Shown here: positions 1-44,268 of the stretch, piece by piece
Numbering within the stretch: position 1 is the first letter of the stretch
Layout of the letters: every line of letters begins with the position of its first letter
NCBI GenBank assembly: GCA_030704615.1
Contig: CM060734.1
Location: 33,418,001 to 33,482,000, forward strand
Source of the DNA: Takakia lepidozioides
Lineage: Eukaryota > Plantae > Bryophyta
DNA: 64,000 nucleotides
Direction: 5' to 3'
Notes under the pieces: model-generated
What the model saw: only the letters and a program-made list of their open reading frames with translations
Databases searched by the model: none
Told to the model about the DNA's origin: nothing
Program-made: the position numbers and the translations under genes

Positions 1-12
1 ATCTTTCTCGAG
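1..12 (-). promoter_or_regulatory. Candidate self-priming primer-binding site directly after B1
   Basis: The minus strand reads CTCGAGAAAGAT immediately after the terminal CA of B1. This is exactly complementary to ATCTTTCTCGAG inside repeat B (29342-29353; 178-189 in B1). The window edge hides its full length. Confidence 0.5.
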
Positions 13-339
13 TGATAAAGAGGAAGAATACAAGCACAAGCTCATGCGAGCTCACAAAGCTGAAGCATAAACTCATGCATATATAATCTCATCACTCAAA
101 TACAAGTCAAGCCAAGTGCACCCCATGCCATGGGGAATCCACACTACGGCGCCATAGCTAGGCGCGGTGAGGCTCAACTCGAGAAAGATGAGCCTCCCGC
201 GCTTGCCGTGAAGATAACCACTCCAGGGCCTAAATCTGCCTTGACCCCTGGATTGACACTTGGGCCAATCCCAAATGTCAATATGTAAAAGCTAGCTATT
301 TCCTAACTAGTTTCACACTAGTGGTAAAATAACTTGACA
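13..339 (-). repeat. Terminal repeat B1 (327 bp, TG...CA), inferred 5' terminus of the DNMT-Gypsy element, now inverted
   Basis: Reverse complement of 29192-29518 with about 3 substitutions seen by eye. Reads TGTCAAG...TTTATCA on the minus strand. Flanked at 340-343 by GATT, the reverse complement of AATC at 29698-29701. Confidence 0.9.
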
Positions 340-788
340 GATTCAAAATGGCATGAAATTTCTGAGATATGCATTGGTGCAAAAGTAATGTTAACTCAAA
401 ATATTAATTTAGAAATTGAAATTAATTTAGAAATTAATGAAATTTAATTTAGAAATTGGTGCTGCCAACGGTTCAATTGGAACATTTACACAAATTCAAG
501 CAACATCAGATCCCCAAACAATTACATCAATATTAGTGCTCCTACATAATTCTGACAATAGTATAATACATCAAAATGAAATTAAATATACTAAAACATC
601 TTTTCCATTGACATTAGCATATGCCATGACTGGTCACAAATCTCAAGGTGCAACAATATCTTCAAATGTAATGATATCAATAAAAGAAGCATTTTCACCA
701 CATTATGCTTTCAAGAGTTACATCTAGATGTCATTTAAAAATAATAAACACTCTAACACCCGATGATTTTGAGCCCATGAAAATCTGA
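340..788 (+). pseudogene. Helitron Pif1-like helicase, C-terminal fragment
   Basis: IGAKVMLTQNINLEIGAANGSIG and FPLTLAYAMTGHKSQGATI Pif1 motifs; AT-rich; small duplications and deletions. Confidence 0.85.
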
Positions 789-7205: not shown

Positions 7206-8089
7206 CTGACTCGTGGAGGCACTGGTGGACTGCCTAAGGACTGACATGTCTTGAAGGCCAAATTTTGAAGCTCGTGGAGGGCGGTTTTGAGGAGTATCTT
7301 CATGATATTTCCATGGTCATGCAAGTGAGGGAAGAGAGGAGAAAAAAAGTGTTGGGATGAGGGCATGCTGGGGTTAGGCATTGCTTTAGCTTCTCTTCCC
7401 ATAGTTTTTCACCCTCTCATTAGGCCAAGACCTTTCCATAGGTGGAGGCAAGAGTCAGTCTGGGTCTGGGCTGGGGTATCCTTGCAGGAGCAACACCGTG
7501 GAGTTGTTTTGGTATGGGGGAGTTGTTATTCTAATTTCTTGTGTTTGGATCCCCTCCATACCTGTATGCTTGACTGTGCGCCATGTTAGTTTTGTGTGGG
7601 CGCTTGTTTTTATAGGTGATTGGTCCGGATTTGATCACCGGCCAGTCCTAGAGCATGCTGTCGATGGTGAGGCTGGGGTGATGACCAGTCAGACCATCAT
7701 TGTTTCTCCTGTGGTGAGGTTGGAGGTGATGACCAGCCAACCATAGGAGTGCTTGCAGTGGATGCAGGTGCAGGTATAGGCTGTGTTAAGAACCTAGTAT
7801 TCCAAACCATAAGCCGCAACAGGTTCTCTACCCAGTTACCTTGTGGAGAGGGGGTTAGGGACATGTTCATGACCGGTTGAGTAACAGTTTGTCAACACGG
7901 AGGTGCCACTAGTTGCTGTGGACAGTGCCGGTTCGAGCACTAGCGATACTAGTGGGTACACGAGACGAGGTGTGCGGTTTAGGCCACCTTCACCTCTTGT
8001 GTCTTCTACGGAAGGTTCTGATTCGGATTGTGAATCAGGAGGACTCACACCGGCGGTGCAAGTTGTTTCCTTGCCATTGTTGTGGGACA

Positions 8090-9700
8090 CAATGGAGGAG
8101 ATCTATGGAGCTACCAAGGGGCCACGAAGGTACTTTGGGGCAGTGGGCACCATCAAGTTGGATGATTTTATCCAAAAGTTATAGTTGGTGTGATTTGCAG
8201 CAAATGCGCAATCCACAACTATTTACGCCTTTCATGGCATAGAAGGGGTTGTTTCAACACCTTGAGGGGCCGCCTATGGATGATTACCATGAGTTCAGGC
8301 GGGGGCATGAGGTTGAGATTAAGGAGTGGAGGATGTATTGGTCACCCGACTATGTCTCCATCACTAGGGGCACTAGAGCCACGAGGGCAGTGGCTACACA
8401 TGCCGCTGCACCGACAGCTTCAGCAAGCAGCAGTGGGACTAGTGGGACTGGTGATACCGTAGCTACGACGTCCACCCAAGCTACTGCTGCACCAGCACCA
8501 GTGGCGGTGCCTGCCTTTAACCCTGTTGTGGAGTTCTTCGAAGAGTTAAGAGGGAACTGCCAAGGGGTGAGGACAGAGAAGTTGCGGAGCTTGCAAGAGT
8601 TCCAACGGAGCCGACTGAGAGCTTGAGGGAGGCTTTCACTCGCATGAGGCGCTTGATAAATGTAACCCAAGGGGTTACGGAAGCTCAGGCAGTCTAATTC
8701 TGGTATGGGATATTGGACAAAGAGCTGAGGAGAAGGGTGCGGGATGCAACTCTCCTACAAGCGGCCCAACCCACCTTAGCAAATGTGTTTTTGCTGGCAG
8801 AGCGGATAGAGCTCAACATGGTGGAGGAACGAGTGGTCATGGTGGGATTTGCTAAGGAGACACCACAGGGTAGTGGTGCTCCTAGCCAACCACTACCTCA
8901 ACGTGCTCAAGGCAACAAGGGGGCTCAGGTGAAGCTCAGGGAAGGGCAGAGAGGACCTCAGATGCAGGGGTCTCTCCCTTCATTTGCAAGCCAACAACGG
9001 GCGGATGTGGTGTGTTGGACATGTGGAGGACCCCACGTCAAGAAGGATTGTCCAGAGGGAGGCAAAGGCCGGCACATGCACAGCCTGCACAGTTGCAGTG
9101 TGGGCATTGTGGCAAGCACGGGCATGGAGAGGCCCAGTGTTATGGTTTGCATCCCGAGTTGCGCCCAGGCCAGTTCCAAGGGAACAATGGTGGCCGGGGG
9201 CGAGGGGAGCAGCCCAAAGAGGACGAGGTGGCCAGGCACGGGGTGTAGGCCAAGGGCAAGCTCAACATGGCCAAGGACGCGGAGGTCAGGGTGTTGACCA
9301 AGGCATGGCCAACCGGCTTCAGCAGCTAGAGCAGAGGCTCGCTGCCATGGCTACAGCTCAGGTGGTACCGGCTCCAAGGCCGGATGGTCCACCTCCTGCT
9401 CCTGAGGGAGGAGATATGGGAGGCATGGGATTCATGTGCGGAGCAGCACTACCACTAGTGCAGGTGGAGTCTGCTGCAGCCGTGACTCGAGGAGCAGCAC
9501 GAGTTCCTGAGCCACGAGGTGCAGAGGTGGAGTTGGATCCACAGCATGGGGAGGCAAGCCGTCAGGCTAGGCTCCCTCAGTCACATTGGCGGAGACAGTG
9601 TCGACGCCATCCATGGCACCTAGTTCTTGCCCGACTGTTACCGAGGCGGAGGTTACTATGCCATTGGGGAGAGCTACACGGGTAGCACCACTACCTAGTG
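8090..9700 (+). pseudogene. gag of the DNMT-Gypsy, with two zinc knuckles
   Basis: Fragmented ORFs containing CWTCGGPHVKKDC and CGHCGKHGHGEAQC upstream of the protease. Confidence 0.75.
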
Positions 9701-9872
9701 TTGCCAAGGCTACGACAGCTAGTGTGCTGCTGGGAGCGGCCACATTTGTATGTCAGGCTCCATTGTTCTCGGCTACCATGATTGCGACGCCGGGGGTAAG
9801 ACCAGCTGAGGTTTCAGGCTGGCAGCTACACTCTGTGAGAGTGGGGAGGTTATTTCATCTTCTGCGGAGATA

Positions 9873-10661
9873 GTGGGAGGTGTAGTGCCGGAGGGATCCT
9901 CGGATTTGAGGGTGAAGACTGCCACGGCGGCGCCATGGCAAGCTGCAGCTGCCAGGTTGATGGAGCTGCCAGCTAGGCCAGCCATTGAGCGCGCCATGGT
10001 GACACCTGGAGTTGTCATGTTAGACAACCAGGATGACATTTTCTGTTTGAGTGGACCGGTAGGCAAGAGGTACCGACCACTGCGGGTCTTGTTGGACTCG
10101 GGAGCTCAGCCATTGATGCTGGGCAGAGCTGCTATTGCAGGCTTGGGCCTCACAGAGGCGGATATGGAGCCTTGTCCTTTCCAGATACAGACGTCTCTGG
10201 GAGGATCAAAGCAGGCTCGAGGCATGACACGGCGTGAGTTGGCTATCAGACTACAGCCGGATCACCCTACAGATGGCTCAGTGATGCAAGCCAAGGCCAT
10301 TGTGACAGACGCGGTCTCGTACGATGTCCTGGTTGGTGGGGCACCGTTGTACCCCATGGGCTTCACCCTGGACTTTTGGGAAGAGTCAGCTTCCTATAGG
10401 CCTGGATGGCAGTCAGGGGAGGGCCGGCGTGTGCAGCTCCCTGTGACATTCATAGGAGGAGTTGCGGTTGCCCAGCGAGGCAAGATGCCGACACTAGCAG
10501 CATTCACAGCGGCAATGAGTTGGCCTGGAGAGTTGCTTGAGGGCAACGCTCATTTAGAGGATGTGCCACCTCCGGGAGAGCAGAAAGACATGTATGGTAT
10601 GGCGGAGTTGTCTGCCATGGTTGCTCAGACTCCATTGTGGGGTACGAGCAAGGATTTGTAG
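9873..10661 (+). pseudogene. Retropepsin aspartic protease of the DNMT-Gypsy
   Basis: VLLDSGAQ active site and YDVLVG C-terminal motif. Confidence 0.85.
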
Positions 10662-10805
10662 TGGGTTGCTAATCGACGGGTGCAACAAGCCTGGGTGGAG
10701 GCTTTTGTACCATCAGGAGAGGAGGAGAGTGCGGGGATTGCACCAGGACCACCTCAGTTGTCTCCATTGGACACCACACCTATTGTGTGGTAGTATCCGG
10801 ATGAA

Positions 10806-11735
10806 GGCATTTGTCTTCTGGACTTGTTTGGCGGGATCAGCACCGGATTGGCTGCTGTGTTACAGGCAGGTTTACGAGTTCGGCGTTACCTATATGTGGA
10901 GAGAGATGAGACTGCACGACGTGTTTCACTTTGCCATGTTGCTCAGTTGGTGCAGCAATACCCTGAGATGTTGCCGATGTCTGCAGTTCGTGGATATCAG
11001 CAGGCCTTGCCAGCAGACATTTCATTGCTGGGGGCGCAGGATTTGGAGCGAGTTGGCTCCATTGATCTGGTAGTGGCAGGTTGGCCCTGCCAAGGGCATT
11101 CATCAGCCGGGCATGGCAATGGATTGCAAGACTCAAGGTCGGGTCTGTTTTGGGAGATGGTGCGGGTTTTGCGCCACTTGCAGCTTCATCAAGCTATATC
11201 TCTAGCATACATCTTGGAGAATGTGCCACTGATGGGCGATTCTTGGGCCAGGGTGATGGCCAGTGTGCATCAAGTCCGGTCATGGCTTGGGTCAGTAGTG
11301 TTGCTAGATGCAGCTACAGTGGGTCACGGGCTCATCGTCCACGGCTATGGTGGACTAACTTGATGCCACCCGCATTGCTCAAGCGTGCATTTGATGGGGT
11401 GCAGCGGCCAGCACACCTCACAGTGGATAGCATTTTGGACACAAGGAGACAGTCTCAACGTGTGAGACACGATGACCGTTCGCCTTTGGCAGTGGTCAAC
11501 AAGGTGGGTCAACCACGAGCAACATTGCCTACACTGCTCAGCTTCCCAGGATCGCATGCTTTCCGGGATAGTGGACCTGGCCTCCTCTGGGATGCTCAGT
11601 TGCAGCAGTTAATGGAGCCTAATGCTGACGAGCGTGAGTGGGCAATGGGTTTTACCACTAGTACCATGCCGTCTCTTTCTGAGGCATCACGTCGTCAGGT
11701 GTTGGGGCAAGCAATGGATCTCAATTGCTTGACCT
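10806..11735 (+). pseudogene. C5 cytosine DNA methyltransferase domain (Dnmt3-like) inside pol
   Basis: Motif I LDLFGGI, II YVERD, III ADI, IV DLVVAGWPCQG, V SGLFWEMVR, VI YILENV, VIII AHRPRLWWTN, IX EREWAMGF, X RRQVLGQAM. Same frame as the protease, with one frameshift near 11325. Confidence 0.93.
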
Positions 11736-12179
11736 GGATTATCAGCTTGGCTATGGCTGAGCAACACAGAGTGCGGAGTACACTTCCCTCGATGGTCTCT
11801 CTGCCTACCAAGATGGTACAGGCAGTGAGTGGGGGCGAGCATGAGAGGACCACGGGGTGCAGGCATCCATGACACACGTGGGAGGTGCTCGAGGTTCAGA
11901 GGGAGTTGGCAGCTAGGGCGGCGGTGATGGATGAGGTTGGGGATTTTTCTCGGGTTGAGGAAGTCCTTGAGGATGAGATGATGGGGCAGGATGAGGCCTT
12001 GTCATTGACTGAGCAGGCAGGGAGTATTGCTCAAGAGGTTGCAACATAGCAACCACTGGACGCGTCCTCTACCTCTAAGCCCACTGGACTTAAGGTTGCA
12101 GTTACGGAGGACAATTGGGAGCCTGACATTGGACCCATTGTCACCGGAGGAGAGAGACAATGTATACGGCGGTTCCTGA

Positions 12180-13848
12180 GGGCTTATAGGAATTGCTTTG
12201 CCTTTAGCTTGAAGGACTTGGGAGCACTGAAGGGTCAAGAGATTCGTATTGAGTTGGCCACTGACACGCCAATCTTTCAGAGACCCTATAGATAAAGTGA
12301 CATGGAGAGGTCTTTGATTTAGATGAGGACTCAAGATCTCTGGGAGTCAGGTTTGGTGGAGCTCTCTGGTGGAGAGTATGCTTCAGCCACAGTGATGCCA
12401 GCCAAGAAGGATGTCTATGGCAATTGGACGGAGAGACGTATGTGCGGTGATTACCGGCCTGTAAATCGTCAGACCAAGTCCGATAAGTATGCCATGCCAA
12501 CACCAGAGGAGATCTTTGATGCCATAGGGCATGCTAAGGTCTTTAGCACTTTGGATTTATGATCCGGATATCACCAAGGAGGCGGACAAACAGAAGACGG
12601 CATTCTGGGGGATCAATGAGCACGGCAAGGATTGCCTATATCAGTGGCGGTTCTTACCATTTGGGCTTAAGAACGCTCCTGCAGAGTTTCAAAGAGTCAT
12701 GGATAGGATTCTAGCAGGGGTGGACTTTGCTCGGTGCTACATAGATGACATCATCATCTTTAGTGCTACGGTGGAGGAGCATGAGAGACACCTTCAGGTG
12801 GTATTGGAGCGCTTGAGAGCGCACGGCTTGAAGTTGCATTTGGGAAAGTGCAAGTTTTTCCACAACCAGATTGAGTATCTGGGTCACATGATATATCCTG
12901 GAGGATTGGGGGTACAGACTAAGATAGAGGCCATTGCACAAATTCCACGCCCCACGGATGTGAGCCGAGTTCGAGCTTTCATGGGATTGGCAAACTATTA
13001 TAGACGGTTTGTCAAGGGATTTAGTGCCATTGCAAAGGCTCTAACCAAGCTGACCAAGGTGGACCAGGAGTGGCAGTGGGAAGATGAGCAGGAATGAGCT
13101 TTTCAAGAGCTCAAGGCGAGGTTGACCTCGGCGCCTATCCTGAGACGACCTATCAGGGGGCGTCCCTTTCAGCTACATACGGATTGGAGCATGCTGGGGC
13201 TTGGAGCGGTGCTCACACAGGTGGATGATGAGGGAAGAGAGTTTGTAGTGGCTTATGCTAGCCGCTCGAACTACGTTCTAGAGGCTAAGTACAGCTCATT
13301 TGAGGGAGAATGCTTAGCTGCGGTGTGGGCCGTGGCACACTTCAGGTGTTATCTATACGGCAATCTCTTCACCTTTGTCACGGATCACCAGCCACTCAAG
13401 TGGTTGATGGAGTCAGACAAGCTTACGGGGAAGCTTGCACGGTGGGCACTCATACTCCAGGAGTACGACTTTCAGGTTGTGCATCGACCGGGTTGGGTCA
13501 ATCAAGATGCGGATGGATTGAGTCGCAATCCATGCACAAGCCAACAGGATGACACTGGAGCTCGGCGGCATGGTGAGACGGACGAGGAGATGGTGTCGGG
13601 ATGGCATGCATCTGCCTTTTTGTGTATCTTGGCATCGGGAGGTCAGATTGGACCCACAACAGGGATGACTGCAGACGGAATGTTTGAGGACCCTGAGGTT
13701 AGTGATGAGCCAGGTGATACCCGAGATATACATGAGGATTCGGCTGTGTTGGACTACCTCCGTATTGGAGACACGGCAGCCACTTTGACTGCCAAGGAGA
13801 GGGATCAGATCCTGCAATGAGCCAAGAGGTTCAAGTGGGAGGGGATAC
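12180..13848 (+). pseudogene. Reverse transcriptase and RNase H of the DNMT-Gypsy
   Basis: RMCGDYRPVN, LPFGLKNAPAEFQ, CYIDDII, LHTDWSMLGLGAVL, TDHQPLKW, DADGLSR; several premature stops. Confidence 0.95.
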
Positions 13849-15061
13849 TGTTAGAGGACTGTCTGGGACTTCGACACTTATACGGGATCTGTGGGGTACC
13901 CTTAATTTTTGCACAGACTAAGACCAACAGGAGCCTTAGGGGTGACAGCAGCGCACTTTAGGGGGGGGGGGGGGGGGGGTGACATATCCCGTCATAGCCA
14001 ACACAGCCGACACAGCCAGACACAGTCAACACAACCCATCACACCCAACACAGCCCGTCACAGCCAGACACAGTCAACACAGCCCGTCACAGCCAACACA
14101 GCCGACACAGTCAACACGGCCCGTCACAGCCAACACAGTCGACACAGCCAGATACAGTCAACACAGTCCGTCACAGCCAGCACAGCCGACACAGCCAGAC
14201 ACAGGCAACACAGCCCGTCACAGCCAACACAGCCGACACAGCCAGACACAGTCAACACAGCTCGTCACAGCCGACACAGCCCATCACAGCCAACACAGCC
14301 CGTCACAGCCCGTCACAGTTTCACACAGCCAGTCACAGCTTGACACAGCTGTCGCGACCATAGGGAACGGATAGCCGGACATGGAACAACTGTGGGGAAC
14401 AACACCTGCGAATGGAACATGTTAGTTCACGGACGACGGTTAGTGAGGGAAACGGTTAGAACAACGGGTAGGAAGATAAAGCTAGAAGCAAGGACTGAAA
14501 GGGGGATCATTCTTGGAGCACTTCGGGGGGGGGGGGGGGGGGAGAATCACTGCTGGAAGGAGTGGGAAGGAGCACTTCTTGGAGAGACTTCGGACATCAC
14601 TGGGGGAAAGGAGGAGAGAGTGTATCTCTGAGCAGAAAGATGGAGAGCACGGAGTAGGAGGAGGATCTGTTGATGCTTAATGAATGCAGGCAGTAGAATT
14701 GTAATGTAGAGCAGATTAGAGACTCCATGGCTTCAGCATGATACTTGATAGATATTAATCTGATACACACCTCATACTCACACTGTGTAGAGAGATCTGA
14801 GTGAAGCTGTGGAATGAATTGATGAGTTGATGGAATCCGATAAATTGATGAAGCAAACTGATACTTAATTACCAGCAGTAAAGTAACTAGCTAACATGAA
14901 TGCAGGAAGGAAAACAAATAGGAAACACCCCCATGATACACTAGCTGTAGGTCATGACTGATTGTTCTGCGCGGGCTGAGTACTTAGAGATTTCCAACTC
15001 TTCTATCTTGGAGTTTCCGCCTCGGATAGCGAAGGGATGGGTGAGTAAAAGCCGCGCGACA
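13849..15061 (+). repeat. 5' LTR of C1 (contains a CACAGCC array at ~13990-14350 and poly-G runs)
   Basis: Direct repeat of 26356-27447, TG...CA. Confidence 0.95.
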
Positions 15062-15661
15062 TTTGGCGACCATACTGGGGATCTGGGTCATGAACAACCA
15101 GATGTGACAGGCATCTGGTGGGATCATGGTGGATGGAGAATTAAAGAATTTGATGTGAATCAAATTCCTTGTGAAACTGAGAAGGAAAGATTGTCCAAAC
15201 GATTCTTCCAGAGGTTTTTGGAATTGCCAGACGGTTGTAAAGAAAACATTCTTAAGAGAGTGCATGATGCTGACCCTGAGTGGGGTCTGGAGAAAGGAGT
15301 GATAAAGATTTATCAGGTTGCCTGTAGAGGAAGAGCACGTTGGTTACCAACATTGGTTTATGTGATAGCATTGCTATCCATTAAGCGAGTAGAGTTTGAA
15401 GGCTGGGAGGAAAGAAAGGTGAATGTTTATACTCATATGCATGAAGAGCTTGTACTGGTAAAGAATTGGATTCCAAAGGATATTTTGTGGATCAAACTCA
15501 CACCAAGAACAGCTTTTCAGACTTGTTTGCCATATGGTTATATGGTAATGGAGTATGGTAATGGAGACTTCAAGTATAGCCAAGGGTGCATTGAAGCTTG
15601 AAAGAAACCCAGGCATATACGAGAGATATTACAGAAGAGAGTTTTGGTTATTGCCACATTA
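14954..15661 (+). pseudogene. Extra upstream ORF (ORF0) of C1, unknown function
   Basis: 215 aa ORF plus a shifted tail; conserved in C2 (44269-44964) with synonymous changes. Confidence 0.65.
15064..15081 (+). promoter_or_regulatory. PBS of C1, tRNA-Arg-like
   Basis: TGGCGACCATACTGGGGA 2 nt after the LTR; resembles the TGGCGAC...CTGGGGA tRNA-Arg PBS of Ogre/Tat elements. Confidence 0.75.
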
Positions 15662-15684
15662 AAAAGAAATGAAAGACATGGGAC

Positions 15685-18600
15685 ATGAGTGATGAAAAGA
15701 AGCTAGACGCCAGAGATATTCAGCAAAAAGAGAAAGCTATCTGAAAGCTAATTATCCATATCTTTGGGAGAGAGGAATAGACATAGGGGAATCATCTGGA
15801 CCTCTCACACCATTAAGATCAAAGAGTACATCACCCATACCGGAAGAACTAGAGTTGGATGCCACTCCTTCTGTTTCTTTGCAAGAAAGATTAAGGGAAT
15901 TGGTACGGGAAGAAGATCAATCACGAGGTGAAAGATCTGAGGTACATCCCTGGATAAAAGATTTGACAGAAATCTTTGATAAGAGTTGGCATGGAACACC
16001 AAAAGCAGGAACTCCAGTTTCTGAAGCGGAAGGTGAAGAAGGAGGAGAGGATGTGGCAGAGCCAACGGAGAGTTCAGACTCTCCAACACCATTACAGTTG
16101 AGTTACATGAGTGAAGAAGAAACCCAAGGGCAGAACTTGGAGGATGAAAACAGAGAGAAGAAATTGGAAGAGGAAGAATATGAAGAAGTAGACCCAACAG
16201 CTGAGGTTGAGACTACAACCAGGACATCCCAACCCGTTGGACCTGGATCAAGTGGAGCACTTGGATCACAGGCCAACGAAGGTGTCGGCTCAGGGGGATC
16301 AGGCGGGCTGCCTGGATCTGGCTCTGGGGGACAGGGAGTGTGGGAAGTAGTGCAACTGAAGCTGGGAATACTGTGAATATCGTGGGGCCAGAAGCAGGGA
16401 GTGCTCAAGGGCCACCACTTGGTGGAAGATCCACCACAACAACAACAGGTCCAGAAGGACCAGCACCAGCAAGGGTGCCAGCACCTGTCAGTGGGCAGAA
16501 AGTAGGGCCACAGATGGCGTTACAACCAACACGGGCAAAACCACCTTTTCCAATATATTCAGGAAAAGGGGATCCCGATGTACACATTAGCCAATTTGAG
16601 CACATGTGTATAGTGAACAATGAGAATGGCGATGATGCCAAGATGAGATTGTTTCCTTGTTCACTTATAAAGAAAGCAAGTGAATGGTATGCAAGATTCC
16701 CTGATAATCATTTCCTAACCTGGAATGGCTTGAATACAACATTCCGAAATAGGTTCAGGACAAGTAAAACTGAGGATGAAGTGTATGGAGTTTACAACAG
16801 TTAAAGCAAAAGAAGCATGAAACTGTTGAGGAGTATATGGAAAAGATGGAATTGATGATGAAAAAGCTGGCTGCAGTACCAGCACCAGGGTTACAGAAGA
16901 CTTGGTTTGTGAGTGGACTAAGACCAGAGTTGCAAAAGAAAGTGGATATGTTACCCCATAATACAGTGGAGGAGGCATTTGAAACTGCAAACAGAATTGA
17001 GCAATTGGGAATGCTCAGGAGAGAGAAAAGGGATGATGAGGACTCTGAGGATGAGTCAGATGAAGAAGAAGAGCAAGAACTAAAAAGGAAGAGTAAGAGA
17101 AAGGAGAAGTTGAAGAGGGATAACTATGAGAAAAGATTGGAAGAAATCTTGAAGAAGTATGCCACAGAGGCTGCAACACATTGGAGGAAGGTGTATGGTG
17201 TGCAAAGTGCCAGAATGAAGGCCATACCACCACAGAATGCCACATGAAGGAGAAACACTGTACTATCTGTAAAATGGATAACCATTCTACTGAGAATTGT
17301 TACTACAACAGAAGGACAGTTGCAAGAGAACCTAGGCAAGTAAGGGTGCATCAAGTGCAGCCCCAGCCAAGAAGAAACAATGATCAGGACCACTATGGTA
17401 GGTCTGGTGGTTATAACAATGGCATGGAAGGGAGAGGTAATTCAAGAGGGAATTACCAAGGAAATTCCAGAGGCAACTATCAGGGTAATCCAAGGGGGAA
17501 TTACCAGCCCGGGAATCAGGATTACAGAAATAATCCAAGAACAGACCAAGGGCGAGGACCCAATGGTGAAGAACTATGTTACTATTGTAATCAGCCAGGA
17601 CATCGCAAGGCAGCCTGTTCATTCTGGATTAGACACCAGAATGAGATGAGAGCTCCTGTGAATGAGGGCCCAGTGGTGGCAGCTCACATGGTTAGGCCAT
17701 GTGTTGTACCAGAAGTAAGTACAATGATAGTAACAAGAAGTAAAGCCAAACTAATACCTCCAGTAGTAGAGGAAGAAGATGATAATGAAGGTGGCAGTGA
17801 TATGCCTGAAGATGATGAGGCTTGGAGAGATGAGAAGGAACTGCACAAGGAAGTGGCAGATACCATAAGGGAAATGCAGAAGAGTACTGATATTCCTGTG
17901 GCAGATTCCTCTGATTCTGATGGAGAAGAAGAAGTGAGTGAGGATGAAAGGAAGAAAGAAGATGCAGACATGCAAAGTAATGAAGAGACTTTGGCTGAAG
18001 TAATATGCCAGACCAAAGCAGAGATTACCATTGGACAGCTATTGGCTGTGGCACCTTATTGTAGGCACAGGCTGTATCAAGCAATCAATCGAATTGCCCA
18101 GGAGACAGGAAACACAGACCTGAACAGCAAGGTGACCAGTTATAATGTGAAGCCGGAAGGGCGAGAAACAGTCATGGACTTTGATGATTCTATGCCAGTA
18201 ATCCAATTGAGAATTGGAAGCACAAACTAACTGATGTACTGATAGATGGAGGTTCTGGAGTAAATATCATGACAGACCAATTAAGGAAGAAGCTTGGTCT
18301 AAGTAACATGAAACCAGCCCCATTTACAGTAACAATGGCAGATCAAAGAAGTGTACAGCCATTGGGATTAATAAGAGGAGTTAAGATACAGATACAGAAG
18401 ATGATCTTTATGATCATAGTAACTGTGTTGAAGATGGATGAAGTCATGGAGGCTTACTCCTTATTATTGGGACGTCCGTGGCTGAAACAGGCCAGGGTAT
18501 TCCATGACTGGAATTCTCAGTTACTAACCGTGCATAATGGGATACACGAGATACAAATTACCACAAAGAAATCTAGTAGATTACCTGCTACGAGAAGACC

Positions 18601-21600
18601 TCGAGGAGTCAGAGAGTATGACTGGAGAGGAGGACTGGATGAGGAGCAGGAAGCTACCCTGTTTGCTGCACACCCAGAGTGGGAGCAGGTTGCAGAGATG
18701 CGGCTGGAAGGCCTAAGTTGTTTAAGGGTATCTGCTGTGGTGTAGTGTCAACAACACCGATTGAAGAGGAAACCAGCAGTTACCCATCACATTTCTATGA
18801 AGAAAAAGAAGGAGAAATGGAAATCCTAGAGGAACCAGCCACTGTGAGTTTACAGGATGAAGTGGTGACTGGTTGGACAATCACAGCTGATGAGCAAGTG
18901 AGGGAAGTGAATGTGGGAACTAAAGAGGAACCAGGATGGTGAAGGTAGGAGCTGATTTGGAGCCAGAATTCTTTGAAGAAGCTAAGAGTTTGTTCATCAA
19001 ATACAGAGATGTATTTGCTTGGAGCTATGAGGATTTAACAGGGATACCACCTGAAATCTGTCAGCATAAGATTGAACTGGAACCGGGGTCAGTACCAATC
19101 AAGCAGGCAAGGTACAGAATGAATCCCAACTACGCACAGAAGGTTGGAGAAGAGATCAAGAAGTTGGCTGAGGCTAAGTTTATATACCCAATAGAGTATA
19201 CAACTTGGTTGTCACCCATTGTGATAGTTCCCAAGAAGAATGGTAAACTAAGAGTTTGTGTGAACTACAAGAAGCTGAATGCTTGTACGAAGAAAGATCC
19301 TTTCCCTTTGCCATTCACAGAAGCAGTATTAGACACTGTGGCAGGCCATGAGATGTACTCATTCATGGATGGCTTCAGTGGTATAATCAAGTGCAAGTGG
19401 CAGAAGGAGACCAAGGAAAAACAGCTTTCATCACAGACTGGGGTGCTTATGCATACAAAGTCATGCCCTTTGGACTTTGTAATGCACCAGCGACCTTTCA
19501 GAGAGTGATAAGTGAATCTTTTCATGAGTATCTGGATGATTTCATGCAGGTGTTCTTGGATGATTTCAGTGTGTACAGCTCTAAGAATGAGCACTTGCAT
19601 AAATTGGAGTTATGTCTGGCCAGATGCAGGATGAGAGGTCTGGGCCTGAATCCAGAGAAGTGTACTTTCTGTGTGAACTCAGGGGTGCTTCTGGGACACA
19701 TTGTGTGTAAGAGGGGACTTCTTGTGGATCCCAGGAAAACAGAGGCCATTAAAGCCTCTCCACCACCAGTGAATGTTAAGAGTCTAAGGAGATTCCTTGG
19801 ACAAACCAGCTATTACAGAAGATTTGTCAGACGGTATGCACAGATAGCAGCACCATTGAGCAAACTTCTGAAGAAAGATGCAGTGTTTGCATGGACACCT
19901 GAATGTCAACAGGCTTTTGAGGAACTTACATTGTCAGTAACAACTACACCTGTGCTGATTAGTCCTCACTGGCAGAAAATATTTCATGTTCACTGTGATG
20001 CTTCTGGAGAAGCACTAGGAGCGGTGTTAGCCCAAAATGTAACAGGAAGGATAGATTCACCTGTGTACTATGCTAGCCGATTGATGAACAATGCCGAAAG
20101 AAATTATAGCACAACGGAAAGAGAAGCATTGGCAATGATCTATGCAGTGAAGAAATTCAGGCATTACCTGTTGGGCAAGAAGTTTATGTTCTATGTGGAT
20201 CACCAGGCTCTGATATACCTGGTAAACAAACCTCTGATAAGCGGAAGAATAGCAAGATGGTTAATAATCTTGCACGAGTTTGAGTTCGAGGTTGTTTACA
20301 AGCCTGGGAGACTGCATCTTGTGGCGGATCACTTGTCAAGGTTATCAACAGGAGAACCAGCCACGGGAGTAGATGATCAATTACCAGATGCGAGTCTATT
20401 TACAGTGGAGGTGCAGGGAAGTGCAGATGACTGGTTAGATTGGCAGTGGCCAATCAGATACTACCTTGCTCATGGTCAGTGCCCACCAAGTTATGGAAAG
20501 GAGCAGAGAAAGAGAATTGCTATCAAGGCTCTACCTTACACTATGGTAGGGAGCAGAATGTATAAGCTAGGACCAGATGGAGTGCTGAAGCGATGCTTAT
20601 ACCACCATGAAGTTAATAAAGTTTTGGAGGAAGTTCATAAAGGAGTGGCAGGAGGTCATTTTGGAGAAGAGACTACCAGCAGGAAAATACTACATGCAGG
20701 TTACTGGTGGCCTACTTTGTTCAAAGATGTACACAAGTATTGTCAGAGTTGTGATGAATGTCAGAGGCTGGGACCTTTGCAGAGATCTGGGAAAATGTCT
20801 TTGCATCCTACAATGCCTACGGAACCATTTCAGAAATGGGGACTAGACTTTGTTGGACCAATTAACCCACCAGCCAAGAATACACAGAACAGGTACATAA
20901 TTACAGCCACTGATTATACTACGAAGTGGGTGGAAGCTAAAGCTTTGAGGGACACATAGCCAAGTCCACAGCAAGGTTTCTGTATGAGAACATACTTACA
21001 CGATTTGGCTGTCCCTTGGAATTTATCAGTGATCAAGGAAGTCACTTCATTAATGAGACCATTGAATTGTTGACTAAAGAGTTCATGATTGTGCATAGGA
21101 GGAGTACAACATATTATCCACAGGGTAATGGGCAGGCAGAGGCTACGAACAAAATACTATGTACTATCTTGGCTAAGATAGTCAATGCAAACAGAACAGA
21201 TTGGGATACAAAGCTGCTGACAGCTTTGTGGTCATACAGGACTTCATATAAAGTCACCACTAAGTATACACCATTCCAATTAGTTTATGGTATGGAAGCC
21301 TTACTTCCAGTGGAATTCCTGTTACCTACCATGAGAACGGAATGGGGAAAGAGAATGGAATTGCAAGATTCCATAAAAGTCAGGAAACATGAATTATACC
21401 ATGTGGAAGAAGTACGTGCTGATGCAGCTGATAATATGACCAGAATTCAGATGAAGAGAAAGGAACAGTTTGATGAAGGCAAGTTAAAGACTTTTAAGAC
21501 GGGAGATTTGGTTCTATGGTTGCAGAAGAAGGGAAAGATTAAAGCTTGTAAGCTTAAATCACCATGGAAAGGACCTTATGTCATACAAAAGATGTATGAT

Positions 21601-22050
21601 AACAACACCGCCATGTTACAAACCATTAACAAAGAGATGCTGGGAAGAGTCAATGCTAATAAGTTGAAGGGGTACAGTGGTATCCATGACAAACCATTGC
21701 AGCATATTTGCATGTTGAAACGCAAAAGCAGTCACGGGCTGCGCCAGTGTTACCAACGGAGTATAGAGCACTTGTCGCTAGGCCGAGCATATATGACCAG
21801 GGCGGGCAGAACAAGCGAGACACAGCCTATCACAGCCCATCACGACGTGACACAGCCTATCACAGCCCATCACAACGTGACACAGCATATCACAGCCCAG
21901 CACGGCGCAACACAGCCTATCACGACCTACCACAGCGTGTCACAACCTATCACAGCTTACCACAGTGCATCACAGCCTATCACAGCTTACCACAGTGTAT
22001 CACAGCCTATCACGGCATACCACAGTATGACACAGCCTATCACAGCTTAA
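15685..22050 (+). pseudogene. gag-pol of C1 (gag, zinc knuckles, PR, RT, RH, INT), frameshifted
   Basis: DPDVHISQFE gag motif, CAKC/CTIC/CYYC knuckles, [51 protein letters not shown]. Confidence 0.95.
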
Positions 22051-22060
22051 CACAGCCTAC
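21815..22060 (+). repeat. 21-bp tandem repeat (CACAGCCTATCACAGCTTACC-like) after the integrase
   Basis: About 11 imperfect units; also present at ~37850-38105 in C2. Confidence 0.9.
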
Positions 22061-22350
22061 TAGGGTTACACAATCCATAGAATCAGTGACAGGTGGACGC
22101 AGGATAACTTCAGTGAAATGGCCGGCGGAAGAAAGGACGGAAGCCAGTTTACAAAGGGACACGTGGAAATCAAGGCGCAACACACAGCTGAGAAGGAGTG
22201 CAAGAACGGATATCATCAAGAAAGGGGACAAGAATGGCCGTCAAAATACCTAATCAGTGCGTCAAATTGGATGAATGGCGGGCCCATTAATGAATACAAA
22301 AAGGGGCAACAGAACAAACGGCAAGTACAGAAAAACAAAATTCTTGTCAC

Positions 22351-25300
22351 ATGTGTTATCCTAGTGGACAGTCCAGCAGGGAAAGTCCACTAAAGAAAAT
22401 TAAATCTAAAATTCAGTCACAGCGGTTACAGCCAATAGAAAGCCAGAGAAGGGATCAAGAAATTGGAGGGAAATTAAGCGCAAGAGTCGGCGTCGTTCTG
22501 AGTAACGGGCGTCTCGACGGGACAAACCATCAATGCTATAGCTTTGAAGCAATGGAGGAACTAACAGACTATACGCTCGCAATATTACTTACGCAGTGGC
22601 ATAGGGACGAAACAACAGAGCGGATCTTTTCTCTTGAGCGATGCTTGCAAGCCCCGCAGGCTTACAAGAAAATACCCATAGCTTTTTGTGGCAACCATAC
22701 GTTTATGCTTTGTGCACTACAGGCATTTCTTCAGTTGTTACAGCCAAAACATTTCTGTGGGTCTAGAATGAAGAGAGTGAGAGGAATGGAGAAAATCAGG
22801 GTGAAGAGCACCACAATTCTGCAGAAACAAACGATTGCTACCCCACAGGCGATACAGATACTGAAGGAGCTGAGATTCCAAGGATTGCAAAGCAAAGATT
22901 GGACATTGCACCATAGACAGTACATGTTACAATTCTTGCAGAACTTTGAGCCAAGGACAGGAGCAACAACGGTGAAGGGAGTTGAATTAGTAATTACTCC
23001 CCTATACCTCCAGCAATTGTTTCGATTGCCAGCAGGCCAGGTGCATGTGGAGGCAAGACTGCAAATAGGGGACTTATTCCAAGAAGGGAGTTTCTTTAAA
23101 ACTCAGGGTTATGCTTGTACCAAGGCCGTGTACCCAGGGCTAAAGGAGGTAGGCCAGGTATTGAACGTTCTGTTTGCCATGAAACAGAACCAACAGTATT
23201 TGAGCAGATCCTTCACAGAGGAAATACTCAAAGCCCTGAGAGGAGAAGAGGTAGAATGGGCGGACATAATGTACAACGCACTGGTGGTAGAGGAGATGAA
23301 AAGATTACAGGGTACTGCCGCAAAGTCTCCTATTATAGTGTCTGGCCCAATCATTGCTCAAATAATTCTTGATTCTGGCATACTTGATGCGCGAGAAAGA
23401 AAGGAGATGGGAGTGTTTGAGCCAGAAACCACTGCAATGGAAGAGCAAGGCTCTTCACACAGTGAGGGTGGACTGGCAAGGCAACCCGAGAATAAGAGAC
23501 AGAGGCGGGGAAAGACTGTAGTGGCGGATCCACTGGCTTCACGGAATCCGCATGATAATGTTTCCCAAGTTTTTGTGCAGGAAGGGGCACAGCAGCACAG
23601 AGAACTGCTATTACTGGAAGCAGGACCTTCAGAGAGGGAAGAGGAAGTTACTTCAGTATCACAGCCATCACAGCCAGAGGATCGGCTTGTCACAAGGTTA
23701 CCACAAGTTGTCCATGCAGTTCAACCAGAAATAATTGATTTAGAAAAAGAAGGGTTAGATATTCCCACTACAGAACAGGTGGTGGCAGAAATAGAGAAGG
23801 GGGACCTTCTCTATGAATATTCTGGTATGGTCAAGGACACAGTGATTCCGGAGGTGCAACGTTGTCCAAGGGAAACCCTGCGGCGCATATAATACACACA
23901 CCTGTGACGGAGGTACCACAGGTAGAATGCCAAGACACTGCAGCACCAGTGACGGATGAAGTGGTTCAGGAAGAAAATCTGGTGGGGCAATGGCCTGAAT
24001 GGTTCGTAAGGCATCACACTGTTGAGGATCAGGGAGAACAGCAGCAAGCTCACCATGATGACCCTCAACAGGCTATGCTTATGAGTTCCATAAGCAGGAC
24101 ACTGATTTGTTGGGTACTTATGTCAAATCCCATGTTCCCACTACTCAATTGGCAGCTTTGAGGGAGGAACTCAGGCAAGAGTTTGAGGCTCGACTTGCCA
24201 CAGAGTGTGCAAACAAGGTCGATGAAGAGGTCACTCTCAAAATGCAGCAAAACTTAGAGAGTACAGAAGCGGCTTTGCAATTGGCCAAGGAACAATTGAT
24301 TGAGGCAGGCCTCGCACTAGAACACTTGCACGAAGCACATAAGCAACAGCTATACCAAATGCAGGTGAAGCATGAAAGCAAGTTGCAAGAAGTGAATGCA
24401 CTACATATGGAGTTGCAGACAGTGCATGACAGGATGGCCATACAATGTGCTACACTCACAACTATGCTTGACCAATCTACAAAAGAAATAAACAGTCAAG
24501 CGGAAAAATGTACGAAGGCAGAAGAAGAGAATGTTGAGCAAATGAAACTCATTGTCGATATGAAGAATACAATCTGTCGCAATGAGGATACTTTCAAGCA
24601 ATACAGGCAGGTTGAAGCTGACCAAGAGAAGCACATCCTGGAGTTGCAACAAACGGTCATGGCCAATAGAAATGAAATCTCGGTCACTAACAAGGCTTGG
24701 AAGGAAGCCAATAATCTGCTTGCTGCTTATGCAAATTTGGTTGAACCTCATGCGAAGCGCATGGAGGCTTTACAACAGCAGTTAGATGTGTACAAACTCA
24801 GAGAGGAGCACACTCTCAGAGGAACCACAAGCAACTTGGTGGATAACCACCTTATGCAGGTCTGGTTAGCACAAGGGCCAGTGGAGGGCAAAGCACCACG
24901 AAAGCTCACCCAAAGCGAAATGAATGAGCTCAGACTGCAAGTGCAGAACATTGCCACAACTACTATAGACAATGTCTATAGTAGGATAGCGGAGTTACAG
25001 GAGGATGTAGACGGACTGCAGACTCAAGTGGAGGACCTAACTTCAGATATTGACAAAAGAGTCTATATACCTGAGGAACAGCTAATGGCTTCTTATTCAC
25101 AAGCCAGAACTTTGGCTTTTCAATCTTCTTCACAGCAGGTGCAGGAGATGCCAATGATACAAGAGCCAGTGCCACCAACACCACAACAAGTCGCTGTGCC
25201 AGTAGCTGACCCTGTTGTTACTACAGCCACGCCACAGCCACCACAGCCTGACGTATGGGGCAATGCTGCTTTTAACCCACCTAAAACTCCAGCTGCAAGG

Positions 25301-26317
25301 GAGTACAGTAGGGCTATGATTATGCCCTTCAACCAAATTCCCATTGTGTTGGATTTGGTTTGGAAAGAATTTAGTCCTCCGCAGTCATTCGCACATTACT
25401 ATCAAATCATGCGCATATGGTTGCCAGTGGCAACTAGGACTAAAGTTCTTCCGAACAATCGACCAATTGAGGATCATCACTTTGCACAGTACTGGCATGA
25501 GGCAGATACCATGTTGAAGGAATTAATTGCTTTCCAAGTTGTACATGGATTCATTTATACCAAGACCAAGGAGGTAGCAAGTATTGTCATGGGATGCGGG
25601 TTATACTACGCTGCTTGTTTTCTGGTACGTTATTACATTGAGCAGCACAAGATGCAATCGCGCTTTCTGAGTTATTCCAGTGGGGATCATTGGGTCTTAC
25701 CTTCAGTGCCACCTCATATGTACCTATATGAGGCAAAAGTTATGATACAAAAGGATTCTCAAATTCGTTCATGGTTTCATGCGGCCTGGAACAATTTGTC
25801 AACACAGAAATTCGGCATTGATGATATTTTCTATAAGGGACATGTGGCATGGAAATACTTGCACAATTCACAAGTCATTGGTACCCCACTCACCTGGACA
25901 GAAAAGGAGCTAAGGGTCTTCACCAATTTTGCCATTCAGCGTTTACAACAAGTTTTAAAATATAAACTTCCAGACATGGTAGGACAACATTGTATGCCCT
26001 AGAGGATTCCACAAAAAGTTCGACAATTAAAACACCTGAGAGGCGATGAGGATTCTGATACAACTGTTTCTTCAGCGGACTCTTTTGACATGGGAGAAGA
26101 CTATGCAATTCAGATGGCAGAAAAGAAGCGATGGGGGTCTCCTATGCCTGAAAGGTTACCTCGATATCAGCCTCCAGAGGGCCTAACATATCCAGGTAGT
26201 GTTCAATCATCTCCGTCAACCAGTGACAGACCTCGGGCTCGTACACACAGTCCGCCACGAAACTCTCAACTTCAGAAAGGTGCTCGCTCACAAAGGATTG
26301 CTAATCCCAATCAGTAA
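22351..26317 (+). pseudogene. Large extra 3' ORF (ORF3) of C1: plant-transposon-protein-like N-terminus, acidic linker, coiled coil, unknown C-terminal domain
   Basis: Consecutive ORFs of 513, 99, 631 and 75 aa between INT and PPT; conserved in C2. Confidence 0.8.
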
Positions 26318-26355
26318 ACCGTGAGGACACGGCTTTTTAAGAGGGGAAGGGGTAA

Positions 26356-27447
26356 TGTTAGAGGACTGTCTGGGACTAAGACACTTATACGGGATCTATA
26401 GGGTACCCTTAATTTTTGCACAGACTGAGACCAACAGGAGCCTTAGGGGTGACAGCAGTGCACTTTAGGGGGGGGTGACACAGCCCGTCACAGCCAACAC
26501 AGCCCATCACAGCCAACATAGCCCGTCACAGCCAACACAGCCGACACAGCCAGACACAGTCAACATAGCCCGTCACAGCCAACACAGCCAGACTCAGTCA
26601 ACACAGCCCGTCACAGCCAACATAGCCAGACACAGTCAACACAGCTCGTCACAGCCGACACAGCCCATCACAGCCAACACAGCCCGTCACAGCCCGTCAC
26701 AGCCCGTCACAGTTTCACACAGCCAGTCACAGCTGTCGCGACCATAGGGAACGGATAGCCGGACAGGGAACGACTGTGGGGAACAACACCTGCGAATGGA
26801 ACATGTTAGTTCACGGACGACGGTTAGTGAGGGAAACGGTTAGAACAACGGGTAGGAAGATAAAGCTAGAAGCAAGGACTGAAAGGGGGATCATTCTTGG
26901 AGCATTTCGGGGGGGGGGGGGGGGCGGGGGGATCACTGCTGGAAGGAGTGGGAAGGAGCACTTCTTGGAGAGACTTCGGACATCACTGGGGGAAAGGAGG
27001 AGAGAGTGTATCTCTGAGCAGAAAGATGGAGAGCACGGAGTAGGAGGAGGATCTGTTGATGCTTAATGAATGCAGGCAGTAGAATTGTAATGTAGAGCAG
27101 ATTAGAGACTCCATGGCTTCAGCCTGATACTTGATAGATATTAATCTGATACACACCTCATACTCACACTGTGTAGAGAGATCTGAGTGAAGCTGTGGAA
27201 TGAATTGATGAGTTGATGGAATCCGATAAATTGATGAAGCAAACTGATACTTAATTACCAGCAGTAAAGTAACTAGCTAACATGAATGCGGGAAGGAAAA
27301 CAAATAGGAAACACCCCCATGATACACTAGCTGTAGGTCATGACTGATTGTTCTGAGCGGGCTGAGTACTTAGAGATTTCCAACTCTTCTATCTTGGAGT
27401 TTCCGCCTCGGATAGCGAAGGGATGGGTGAGTAAAAGCCGCGCGACA
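26356..27447 (+). repeat. 3' LTR of C1, preceded by PPT AAGAGGGGAAGGGG (26339-26352)
   Basis: Direct repeat of 13849-15061 with a shorter internal array. Confidence 0.95.
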
Positions 27448-27452
27448 GATAC

Positions 27453-28560
27453 ACCTGCTCCGAGTATGGGAGGATGGTCGGGTGAGGATTGTGCCTCACC
27501 CCACACATCGTGCACGGTTAGTGCGGCATGCCCATGAGGAGTTGGGGCATTTTGGAGTGCGACGCACTCACAGTTTATTGCAAGGGCAGTATTGGTGGCG
27601 TGGTATGTATACAGAGGTGCAACAGTTCGTGGCTAGGTGCATGGTGTGTGACACGGTGCGTGCTTCATTCAACGCCGCTATACCACAGTTTCATCATTTA
27701 CCAATCATGGGATTGGGCTACAGGTGGAGTCTTGACTTCGCAGGACCGTTGCCACTGACTATGCGCCACCACAGATATGTGTTGGTGATGGTGGAGCGCT
27801 TCTCCAAGTGGATTGAGTTGGTTCCATTGCGTGACAAGGCTAGTGAGGGGGCTGCGTACGCATTCTTGGTTCATGTGCTTAGCCGATTCGGTGCTCCAGC
27901 TGAGGTACTCACGGACCAAGGGAGAGAGTTCTTGGGGGAGTTTCAGGCTTTGTGTGATAAAGCCTTGATAGACCACCGCACCACTTCTTGGGATCATCCT
28001 GAGGCCGATGGCTTGGCAGAGAGAGTTGTTCAGATGGTGAAGAGGGGTTTGCGCAAGTATGGCTTGCAGAAGGGACACCTAGGAGATTGGGATCTTTAGG
28101 TTCCTTGGTTAGCCATGGGCTACAGGTTCCGCAAACAAGCATCACTTGCCTCCTTCTCACCATATTTCCTTCTCTTTGGTCGAGAGCCGGATTTGCCTGC
28201 AGCCATTTGTATGGACACTGCTCAAGTCCTTAACCTTGACGATCCGGACGTATGGGTACGTGCATGTGATCAGCGTGCAGAGTTGTTCAAGAAAGTCATG
28301 CCCATGGCTTTTGAGAACCTTGCCATTGCACAACACCGTGATACGTTGAGGTATGCCACTATACGTGGTGGAGGATATCGTCCTGGGGTTCGGAGGTTTA
28401 GCCTTGGTGACTATGTTTATTTGTAGCAGACTGCTCCTACGACTCTGGATGTTACTGCAGGGCGTGTTATTCTGAGGGTTCGAGAGGTGTTGCCCTCAGG
28501 GGTCTTGATCTTGGAGGGTCGGGATGCGCCATGTCACCTTCCCAATGTCGATGGCTGAGT
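27453..28560 (+). pseudogene. DDE integrase of the DNMT-Gypsy
   Basis: HEELGHFG...CMVC zinc domain, WSLDFAGP, LTDQGREF, DGLAERVV, SPYFLLFGREP. Confidence 0.95.
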
Positions 28561-28597
28561 TGACCCAAACTTGGCAGTGGTACCTACAGGTTTGAGG

Positions 28598-28741
28598 TGC
28601 ATGCTTTGTGGGTCTGCCAAAGGGGCAGCCACCATGCTGGTGTGTGATCGATGCTCAAGGGGTTGACATATGGGATGTTTGACACCACCTCTTGAGAAGG
28701 TTCCTGACGGAGATTGGTTGTGTCCACACTGCTTGGGATAG
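28598..28741 (+). pseudogene. PHD finger at the C-terminus of pol
   Basis: Manual translation CMLCGSAKGAATMLVCDRCSRG*HMGCLTPPLEKVPDGDWLCPHCLG* fits the C4HC3 consensus; the internal stop is TGG>TGA. Confidence 0.92.
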
Positions 28742-29001
28742 TGGCAGTGGACATGACTGGAGGCAGCTAATAAGACATGGGAGGCCAAACTCATAGAAGT
28801 CAATACATGAGATCCCAAGCTCAAGTTCACAGGTTGCAAGACGGCAACTAACGATGGGGCAACTCTTGCACCCGGCCTCTTGATCTATCGAGTTTGAGTG
28901 TAGTAAGGATAGTGGTGGAGGACTTAGTGAGGCTATGGTCACTATCACATCTTGTGGCTACCTGGACTTAGAGGGACCTAAGCACCAGTTAGGGGGGCGA
29001 T

Positions 29002-29189
29002 TGTGTGGACAAGTGACTGCCATAGTGGGCAGAATAGTGGCAACCTAGTGACTGACTAGTTGTAGCCTAGTAATTGGACTAGTGGCTGGACTAGTGGTGG
29101 ACTAGTGATATACTAGTGTGTGGCGTGCACATGTGTTGTGTGGTTTTGGACAGCGATGTAGTTGTGTAGCGATATGTATGCGCATGACA
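29002..29189 (+). repeat. Terminal repeat A1 (188 bp, TG...CA) directly after PPT AGGGGGGCGA-T
   Basis: Direct repeat of 29521-29697; rich in ACTAGT. Confidence 0.9.
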
Positions 29190-29191
29190 GC

Positions 29192-29518
29192 TGTCAAGTT
29201 ATTTTACCACTAGTGTGAAACTAGCTAGGAAATAGCTAGCTTTTACATATTGACATTTGGGATTGGCCCAAGTGTCAATCCAGGGGTCAAGGCAGATTTA
29301 GGCCCTGGAGTGGTTATCTTCACGGCAAGCGCGGGAGGCTCATCTTTCTCGAGTTGAGCCTCACCGCGCCTAGCTATGGCGCCGTAGTGTGGATTCCCCA
29401 TGGCGTGGGGTGCACTTGGCTTGACTTGTATTTGAGTGATGAGGTTATATATGCATGAGTTTATGCTTCAGCTTTGTGAGCTCGCATGAGCTTGTGCTTG
29501 TATTCTTCCTCTTTATCA
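29192..29518 (+). repeat. Terminal repeat B2 (327 bp, TG...CA)
   Basis: Inverted match to 13-339; joined to A1 by CA-GC-TG and to A2 by CA-AT-TG. Confidence 0.9.
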
Positions 29519-29520
29519 AT

Positions 29521-29697
29521 TGTGTGAACTAGTGACTGCCATAGTGGGCAGCCTAGTGACTGACTAGTTGTAGCCTAGTGGTTGGACTAGTGGCTGGACT
29601 AGTGGTAGACTAGTGATATACTAGTGTGTGGCATGCACATGTGTTGTGTGGTTTTGGACAGCGATGTAGTTGTGTAGCGATATGTATGCGCACGACA
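29521..29697 (+). repeat. Terminal repeat A2 (177 bp), right end of the element
   Basis: Copy of A1 with an 11-bp indel and about 7 substitutions; followed by TSD AATC. Confidence 0.9.
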
Positions 29698-41798: not shown

Positions 41799-41806
41799 CT
41801 TGCTGT

Positions 41807-44247: not shown

Positions 44248-44268
44248 GTCCCATGTCTTTCATTTCTT

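Follow-up and report, generated by a model that had tools for sequence, protein, structure and literature searches.

Layout of the locus

The window, by which we mean the whole 64,000-nucleotide stretch of Takakia lepidozioides DNA analysed here, holds a dead Gypsy retrotransposon that carries a C5 DNA methyltransferase and an integrase with a PHD tail; a 4-bp target site duplication (TSD) flanks it, and its terminal repeats are split (Table 1). Its inserted layout reads B-PBS-coding-PPT-A-GC-B-A, where PBS is the candidate primer binding site and PPT the polypurine tract. Repeat B comprises 327 nt, opens with TG and closes with CA; its two copies, B1 on the minus strand and B2 on the plus strand, differ at 3 positions. 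The 4 bp flanking B1 and A2 are identical and outside them lie two halves of one PIF1 helicase gene, which identifies B1 and A2 as the left and right ends of a single insertion. The empty target site is preserved in a contig of run X11, in which the 4 bp occur once and the 340..760 part is joined to the flank at 29698. A 4-bp TSD outside the start of B and the end of A was found in 8/8 two-ended copies, six of them exact and two with one transition. Furthermore, the loose ends of run X1 comprise many different flanks at the start of B together with the A-GC-B joint and the B/A joint, and the layout is thus family-wide. The extra A between B2 and A2 is absent from the other copies shown.

The coding block at 7600..13848 is inverted relative to B1, and the PIF1 halves (340-760 and 29698-31370) are now oppositely oriented. 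The opposed halves point to an inversion of more than 7 kb, or to a misjoin, after insertion of the element. Judged from the sequence, one break of this putative inversion would lie between about 5500 and 7600, with leader similarity to a relative at 7618-7653. The Gypsy elements at 13849-27447 and 32657-45793 were rejected as inversion breakpoints, both having intact 5-bp TSDs. At such a locus, LTR finders would take B...B for the LTRs and miss the TSD, the PPT and the true right end.

Table 1. Coordinates of the element, its terminal signals and the interrupted host gene in the window
Feature	Position	Strand	Remarks
Candidate PBS, adjoining the terminal CA of B1, without TGG	1..12	-	kept in other copies; counterparts in two related families
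Repeat B1, left end of the element; putative U3 part, R and U5	13..339	-	start borders many different flanks in run X1
Good TATA-like 8-mer 104 nt downstream of the motif; rival promoter	78..85	-
Local hairpin, arms 190-202 and 162-176	162..202	-	keeps motif from PBS if upstream B is in the RNA
Putative self-primer and RNA 5′ end, B 151-162	178..189	-	exact complement of the PBS
Degenerate TATA position (-28)	213..217	-	lines up with the TATA box in families 2 and 3
TSD, left copy, 4 bp	340..343	+	empty site with single copy in X11
C-terminal half of interrupted Helitron-type PIF1 helicase	340..760	+	translation; X11 contig joins it to the 29698 flank
End of 5′ UTR, gag, protease, C5 DNA methyltransferase, RT, RNase H; stops and frameshifts	7600..13848	+
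Unrelated nested Gypsy splitting the host pol, 5-bp TSD, TGG-type PBS	13849..27447	+
Integrase (H2C2, rve) with C-terminal PHD finger, broken	27453..28740	+
Polypurine tract, immediately before A1	28991..29000	+	same tract in families 2 and 3
Repeat A1	29001..29189	+
GACA-GC-TGTC palindrome linking A1 to B2; putative integrase cut site	29186..29195	+	junction in many contigs
Repeat B2, motif at 29342-29353	29192..29518	+
One extra A, then A2 (29520-29697), right end of the element	29519..29697	+
TSD, right copy, 4 bp	29698..29701	+
N-terminal half of interrupted PIF1 helicase	29698..31370	-	Pfam PIF1

The remainder of the window is crowded with other repeats. At positions 802-865, a short stretch opens with motifs resembling the A and B boxes of tRNA genes and may be a tRNA-derived SINE; ARAGORN calls no tRNA there. 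A broken LINE-like element at about 1030-5490 contains a zinc knuckle and, judged by eye, endonuclease- and RT-like stretches, and is cut off near 5495. It is followed at about 5500-7300 by a repeat-rich region, near the putative inversion break, with about 70% similarity to the nested element's LTR in inverted orientation. The segments 13849-27447 and 32657-45793 are two copies of one 13-kb Gypsy, 93% identical and on opposite strands, with LTRs of about 1.2 kb, a TGG-type PBS, 5-bp TSDs and, downstream of the integrase, long extra frames that have no Pfam match. On the minus strand we find a DUF4216 frame (49134-50060), a SWIM-finger frame (53487-54134) and another Gypsy gag-pol (54793-57990). 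Tandem arrays occupy 48317-48517 (66 nt), 50569-51066 (126 nt) and 60942-61202 (29 nt).

Coding content

Gag through RNase H span about 7880-13848 of the plus strand, and the methyltransferase lies at about 10800-11870 (PF00145, E 1.4e-12 in Pfam). The Gypsy protease, RT, RNase H and integrase were all identified with Pfam. No tyrosine recombinase was matched among the 29 frames scanned; an rve integrase is present instead. Its tail is 63% identical to that of the relative L081, and the L081 tail and the relative P0061 match PHD and give no Chromo match.

Sixty-six longer relatives of the methyltransferase were found, and those with names belong to Marchantia, Calypogeia and Sphagnum polyproteins. 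One relative, P0013, matches DNMT3A chains (E 2-4e-06), and the best PDB match of a relative is the Ty3 RT. In P0061, a relative of 1824 amino acids, the methyltransferase stands after the RNase H and not before the RT; the domain order therefore varies within the lineage.

A candidate priming site beside repeat B1

Read on the minus strand, positions 1-12 of the window lie immediately 3′ of the terminal CA of B1, and their first bases are not TGG. These 12 nucleotides are complementary without mismatch to B positions 151-162 (window 178-189). A sequence-only reading of the same DNA had described them as perfectly complementary to a site in the middle of B and as lacking an initial TGG, and both observations are confirmed. 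The complement grows to 13 nt when the terminal A of B is counted. Elsewhere in the window, a complement to B1 of 12 nt or longer begins at 3 of 63,256 other positions. As a control, the nested element at 13849-27447 carries an ordinary TGG-type site after its LTR.

The edge of the window coincides with the 12th matching base. B1 could accordingly sit inside an inverted B copy, or the match could be an assembly artefact at a contig edge, the first of which the sequence-only reading had named as the case that would overturn it: a flank continuing as a long stretch of B. The sequences behind B were compared in runs X5, X11, X12 and X14 (RNA; 0 reads) against the B2 region, the RNA status of X12 being a guess. 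In three of the four runs (X5, X11 and X12) the 30 loose letters behind B open with the PBS sequence, with one change in X5, so the site is kept in other copies, where that reading had suggested looking. There, the match to B extends for 12 nt (X11), 15 nt (X5) and 16 nt (X12), inside the range of about 11-20 nt which it had expected of a PBS, and then gives way to non-B sequence; B1 is therefore not nested within another B. In addition, a contig of X5 spans window 1-339 and reaches 1,149 nt further left, and the related families described below share the same design. At the level of the family, nesting and artefact are refuted, and what probability they retain for this copy is very small.

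Related families and covariation of the pairing

A scan with the methyltransferase alignment, restricted to the best 80 of 137 metagenome loci, yielded family 2, whose proteins are 59-72% identical to those of the window family (family 1). Family 3 is L081 (52% protein identity), a single contig binned with a bacterial (cyanobacterial) genome and probably a eukaryote contaminant in that bin. The near-complete family-3 element, L081:1-9285, was assembled as a circle; we do not accept this circular contig as proof of circular DNA, as it is probably a collapsed repeat. The integrase query returned no relative from viral contigs, and the methyltransferase alignment gave against them only phage-type matches of 28-35%, which were not used. 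An exact 20-nt junction pattern had 0 matches in the metagenome contigs.

In family 2, the same layout is present at both ends in L005/L049 (one site), L059 and L070. Its B is distant from that of the window (global score 143, versus 90 ± 11 for shuffles), but the motifs nonetheless align. The three families carry different sites of 11-12 nt in the same register, directly after CA. Each site pairs with its own B over 12, 16 and 12 nt, whereas it matches the B of the other two families over 3-7 nt. At the family level all 36 of 36 cells are paired, and 7 of the 12 pairs have changed on both sides. In a 10-row alignment, 95.8% of 120 cells are paired, as against 34-53% after sliding by 1-3 columns; eight of these rows are family-2 copies picked for an intact motif, so that the independent points are three families and not ten. 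Among 500 shuffles, at most 1 reached the observed value in four of the five covariation measures, and 78 reached it in the fifth (further pair types).

The pairing can also be followed through 25 family-2 5′ copies (about 21 distinct sites), a count from which L016, L067 and L072 (partial B) and L001 (a B that is not followed by the leader of the element) were left out. At least 10 of 11 pairs are kept in 16 copies; three have lost part or all of the motif through deletion and the remainder have decayed.

These data bear on the nature of the primer. Half-tRNA priming exists in plant copia lineages, according to the accessible text of PMC6317226, and the primer here might likewise be a tRNA half or fragment which resembles the mid-B motif by chance. 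However, the site varies among families in step with its own B, unlike a host tRNA; moreover, ARAGORN finds 0 tRNAs in the window and Rfam 0 matches in window 1-400. We regard a tRNA-derived primer as very improbable. Positions 1-12 are likely a tRNA-independent PBS, for which the element's own transcript would supply the primer with its 5′ end. The self-priming proposed in the sequence-only reading thus gains support from the common register in three families and from the compensatory changes, to which the TATA placement and the predicted folds described in the next section are added.

Transcript start, promoter and RNA folding

A TATA box lies 29-31 nt upstream of the motif in 16 of the 17 family-2 copies examined and 29 nt upstream in family 3, while the window family has only a degenerate TATA at -28. 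In all three families, the arm upstream of the motif makes a local hairpin. In the window and in family 3, the predicted pairing between motif and PBS is 0 when the upstream part of B is included in the RNA. In the window fold, it comes near 1 for motif bases 1-9, only if the RNA starts at B 147-151, and motif bases 10-12 favour other partners; in family 3, an RNA beginning at the motif brings it near 1 for the majority of motif bases. The dependence on the start is not clean in family 2, in which three of the six folded copies (L007, L061 and L080) pair with the full B.

TATA placement and folds together suggest an RNA start at B 151 or a few nucleotides before it. The start within B that had been postulated earlier thus stands as a likely position, with an adjustment: in X5, X12 and L007 the match passes the supposed start by 3-5 nt, and the RNA may consequently begin slightly before the 12-mer.

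Two further explanations have to be weighed against these promoter and folding data. In the first, the element would still prime itself, with transcription starting downstream of the motif and the primer being the B2 motif near the 3′ end of the same or a co-packaged RNA. A good TATA-like box does follow the motif in the window family, at a distance of 104 nt, and in the full B of this family the motif falls largely within a hairpin loop. On the other hand, families 2 and 3 have no TATA at 104 nt downstream; there, the motif itself is the partner of the upstream arm, and the TATA stands at -29 to -31. The absence of predicted PBS pairing with upstream B in the window and in family 3 also speaks against B2 as the source, and we consider it very improbable.

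In the second, the pairing would form a stem with a structural or regulatory role in the RNA leader, or would reflect complementarity at the DNA level comparable to the ICR of DIRS elements, and priming would occur by other means. B is indeed strongly structured (z -7.9), the match exceeds 12 nt in some copies, the window family has its competing downstream TATA, and the repeat layout is DIRS-like, as can be seen from the available part of PMC5890265. Yet the 3′ arm always begins at the first base after CA, the end of B is exactly the end which is joined to A, the TATA spacing in two families sets the start at the motif, and B is not followed by a TGG site. A stem or complementary region serving some other function is therefore unlikely, and priming by the 5′ end of the RNA is the reading which we retain.

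Proposed route of replication and insertion

The priming site and the inserted ends of the element can be combined into a five-step scheme. First, transcription would begin at B 151 or a few nucleotides before. Second, the first 11-12 nt would fold onto the PBS, be cut as in Tf1 and prime the minus strand from the last base of B. These two steps, an RNA start near B 151 and self-priming by the cut RNA end, are in our view probable. Third, ordinary strand transfers would produce a linear DNA both ends of which read A-GC-B, their positions being fixed by the polypurine tract and the PBS; this follows from priming at the last base of B and a plus strand starting at the first base after the tract. 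Fourth, the two cDNA ends would be joined, giving the B/A junction. Fifth, the integrase would make a cut with a 2-nt stagger in the internal GACA-GC-TGTC of the PBS-proximal repeat and insert the product, leaving B on the left and A on the right. For the last two steps, end-joining followed by palindrome cleavage and insertion from a circle, the odds are slightly better than even.

Several features of the copies relate to this scheme. In families 1 and 2, the B/A junction joins the CA of B to the first base after the polypurine tract; the extra base of the window copy at this place is as an imprecise joint would leave. The A/B palindrome with its GC spacer is present in all three families. 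The ends defined by priming thus meet inside the element, and the inserted ends correspond to the CA-GC-TG palindrome, which suggests end-joining and cleavage by the integrase. The paired repeats are closer within than between elements (transversions 0.010 versus 0.023 for A1/A2, and 0.015 versus 0.025 for B1/B2), as expected if one template yields both in each cycle.

The cleavage step would need a bias. Random cutting of a circle should also yield the permutation B-A-B-coding-A, and none of the 25 family-2 5′ copies (0/25) is preceded by A-GC; the circle model thus requires a preference that it does not itself explain. Cutting may be coupled to plus-strand synthesis across the left end, which would be one source of such a bias. 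Short B-coding-A copies (9 rows, next to 8 long rows and 2 deletion-fused rows) fit one-LTR circles, A1-A2 recombination and assembly collapse equally.

A separate observation concerns L019:12400-13450 and L024:4919-5819, a rearranged copy with inverted B pieces, whose joint consists of B, 9 nt of the PBS, a few bases and A. The TSD is intact in L019. The joint fits a retained primer copy, yet this copy of the element is rearranged and the joint may have come about by deletion.

Precedent for the cut comes from foamy virus, the integrase of which cleaves the palindromic 2-LTR circle junction with its 2-nt spacing (Delelis et al. 2005; accessible portion of PMC1180852). Both systems have a palindrome with two bases between CA ends that is lost on integration; in foamy virus it is the joint of the cDNA ends (PMC1180852), whereas in our element it is internal to the repeat and the joining of the cDNA ends would take place at another site. 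Taken as a whole, a self-priming site in a B-coding-A-B-A Gypsy retrotransposon is the best explanation, to which we assign a probability of about 0.75. The stronger claim is that priming ends and insertion ends are uncoupled, so that a joined self-primed cDNA (a two-LTR circle or its equivalent) would be an obligatory integration precursor and a DDE integrase would open the LTR palindrome; its chances we put at even.

Comparison with known systems

Split-repeat elements of the PAT/TOC1/Ngaro type have a circular intermediate as their natural route, and elements of DIRS order with split direct repeats are not known to make a target site duplication. The element described here shares the repeat order of the PAT/TOC1/Ngaro tyrosine recombinase elements, as given in the available text of PMC5890265, and differs from them by its DDE integrase, its 4-bp TSD, its polypurine tract and its PBS. 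From the DIRS-order elements it is set apart by an rve integrase in place of a tyrosine recombinase, no match to which occurs in the 29 frames scanned, and by the 4-bp TSD of all eight two-ended copies.

By design, the closest kin is KnitGypsy-Dnmt3 of Klebsormidium nitens (de Mendoza et al. 2018, PMC5890265), a likeness of described layout and domains. The portion of that article available to us reports Gypsy domains and a Dnmt3-like methyltransferase in pol, both common to the window element, and DIRS-like split repeats in the order A-coding-B-A-B, which appear in a figure legend. The corresponding order (first-coding-second-first-second) is found in the window, L005/L049, L059 and L070. Its accessible text and 3 supplementary files are silent on a priming site, a target duplication, a PHD finger and a mechanism (PMC5890265), and there are no K. 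nitens names among the 66 methyltransferase relatives.

The proposed priming resembles that of Tf1, which, in the accessible text of PMC7175516, primes with its first 11 bases after a cut by RNase H; Tf1 priming sits in a three-duplex structure according to the part of bioRxiv 10.1101/2022.12.06.519325 at hand. With Tf1/Tf2 and the Tf1/sushi group, including the plant Tcn1, the element shares Gypsy RT-RH-IN and a PBS of 11-12 nt at CA that is complementary to the repeat (available portions of PMC7175516, PMC6317226 and PMC2864245). Of the Tf1 'pretzel', the central duplex is found here and the side duplexes not clearly: most are no better than mononucleotide shuffles, being better only in family 3 in two of three tests, and the 3′ side of the PBS lies beyond the window. 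In contrast to the Tf1/sushi group, the element has a PHD finger in place of the chromodomain and an additional methyltransferase; its repeats are split, with B on the left and A on the right, where the group has two equal LTRs. It would prime like Tf1 but falls outside Tf1/sushi on chromodomain and LTR layout. Rather than a Tf1-group chromovirus with ordinary LTRs, it is a split-repeat Gypsy bearing PHD and DNMT domains, in which B is only part of the reverse-transcribed terminal repeat.

Significance

A survey of plant elements predicts self-priming only for Tcn1 and TAR, as far as the accessible part of PMC6317226 extends. For this lineage, a literature search whose coverage left most subscription journals and Repbase outside brought up neither self-priming nor a circle route; the available portions of PMC2864245, PMC9940879, PMC6338049 and bioRxiv 10.64898/2026.05.21.726589 contain nothing on either for this lineage. 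Probable self-priming, with compensatory changes, now extends to a plant lineage that bears PHD and methyltransferase domains. The proposed route gives a concrete mechanism for the split-repeat layout which the accessible text of PMC5890265 notes only in a figure legend.

The PBS fixes the required end of the cDNA, and that end differs from the inserted end. Whether joined-LTR circles can be true precursors of integration is an old question. The lineage is a natural system in which to address it and, if the obligatory circle route is true, the two-LTR circle would be a precursor and not a dead end.
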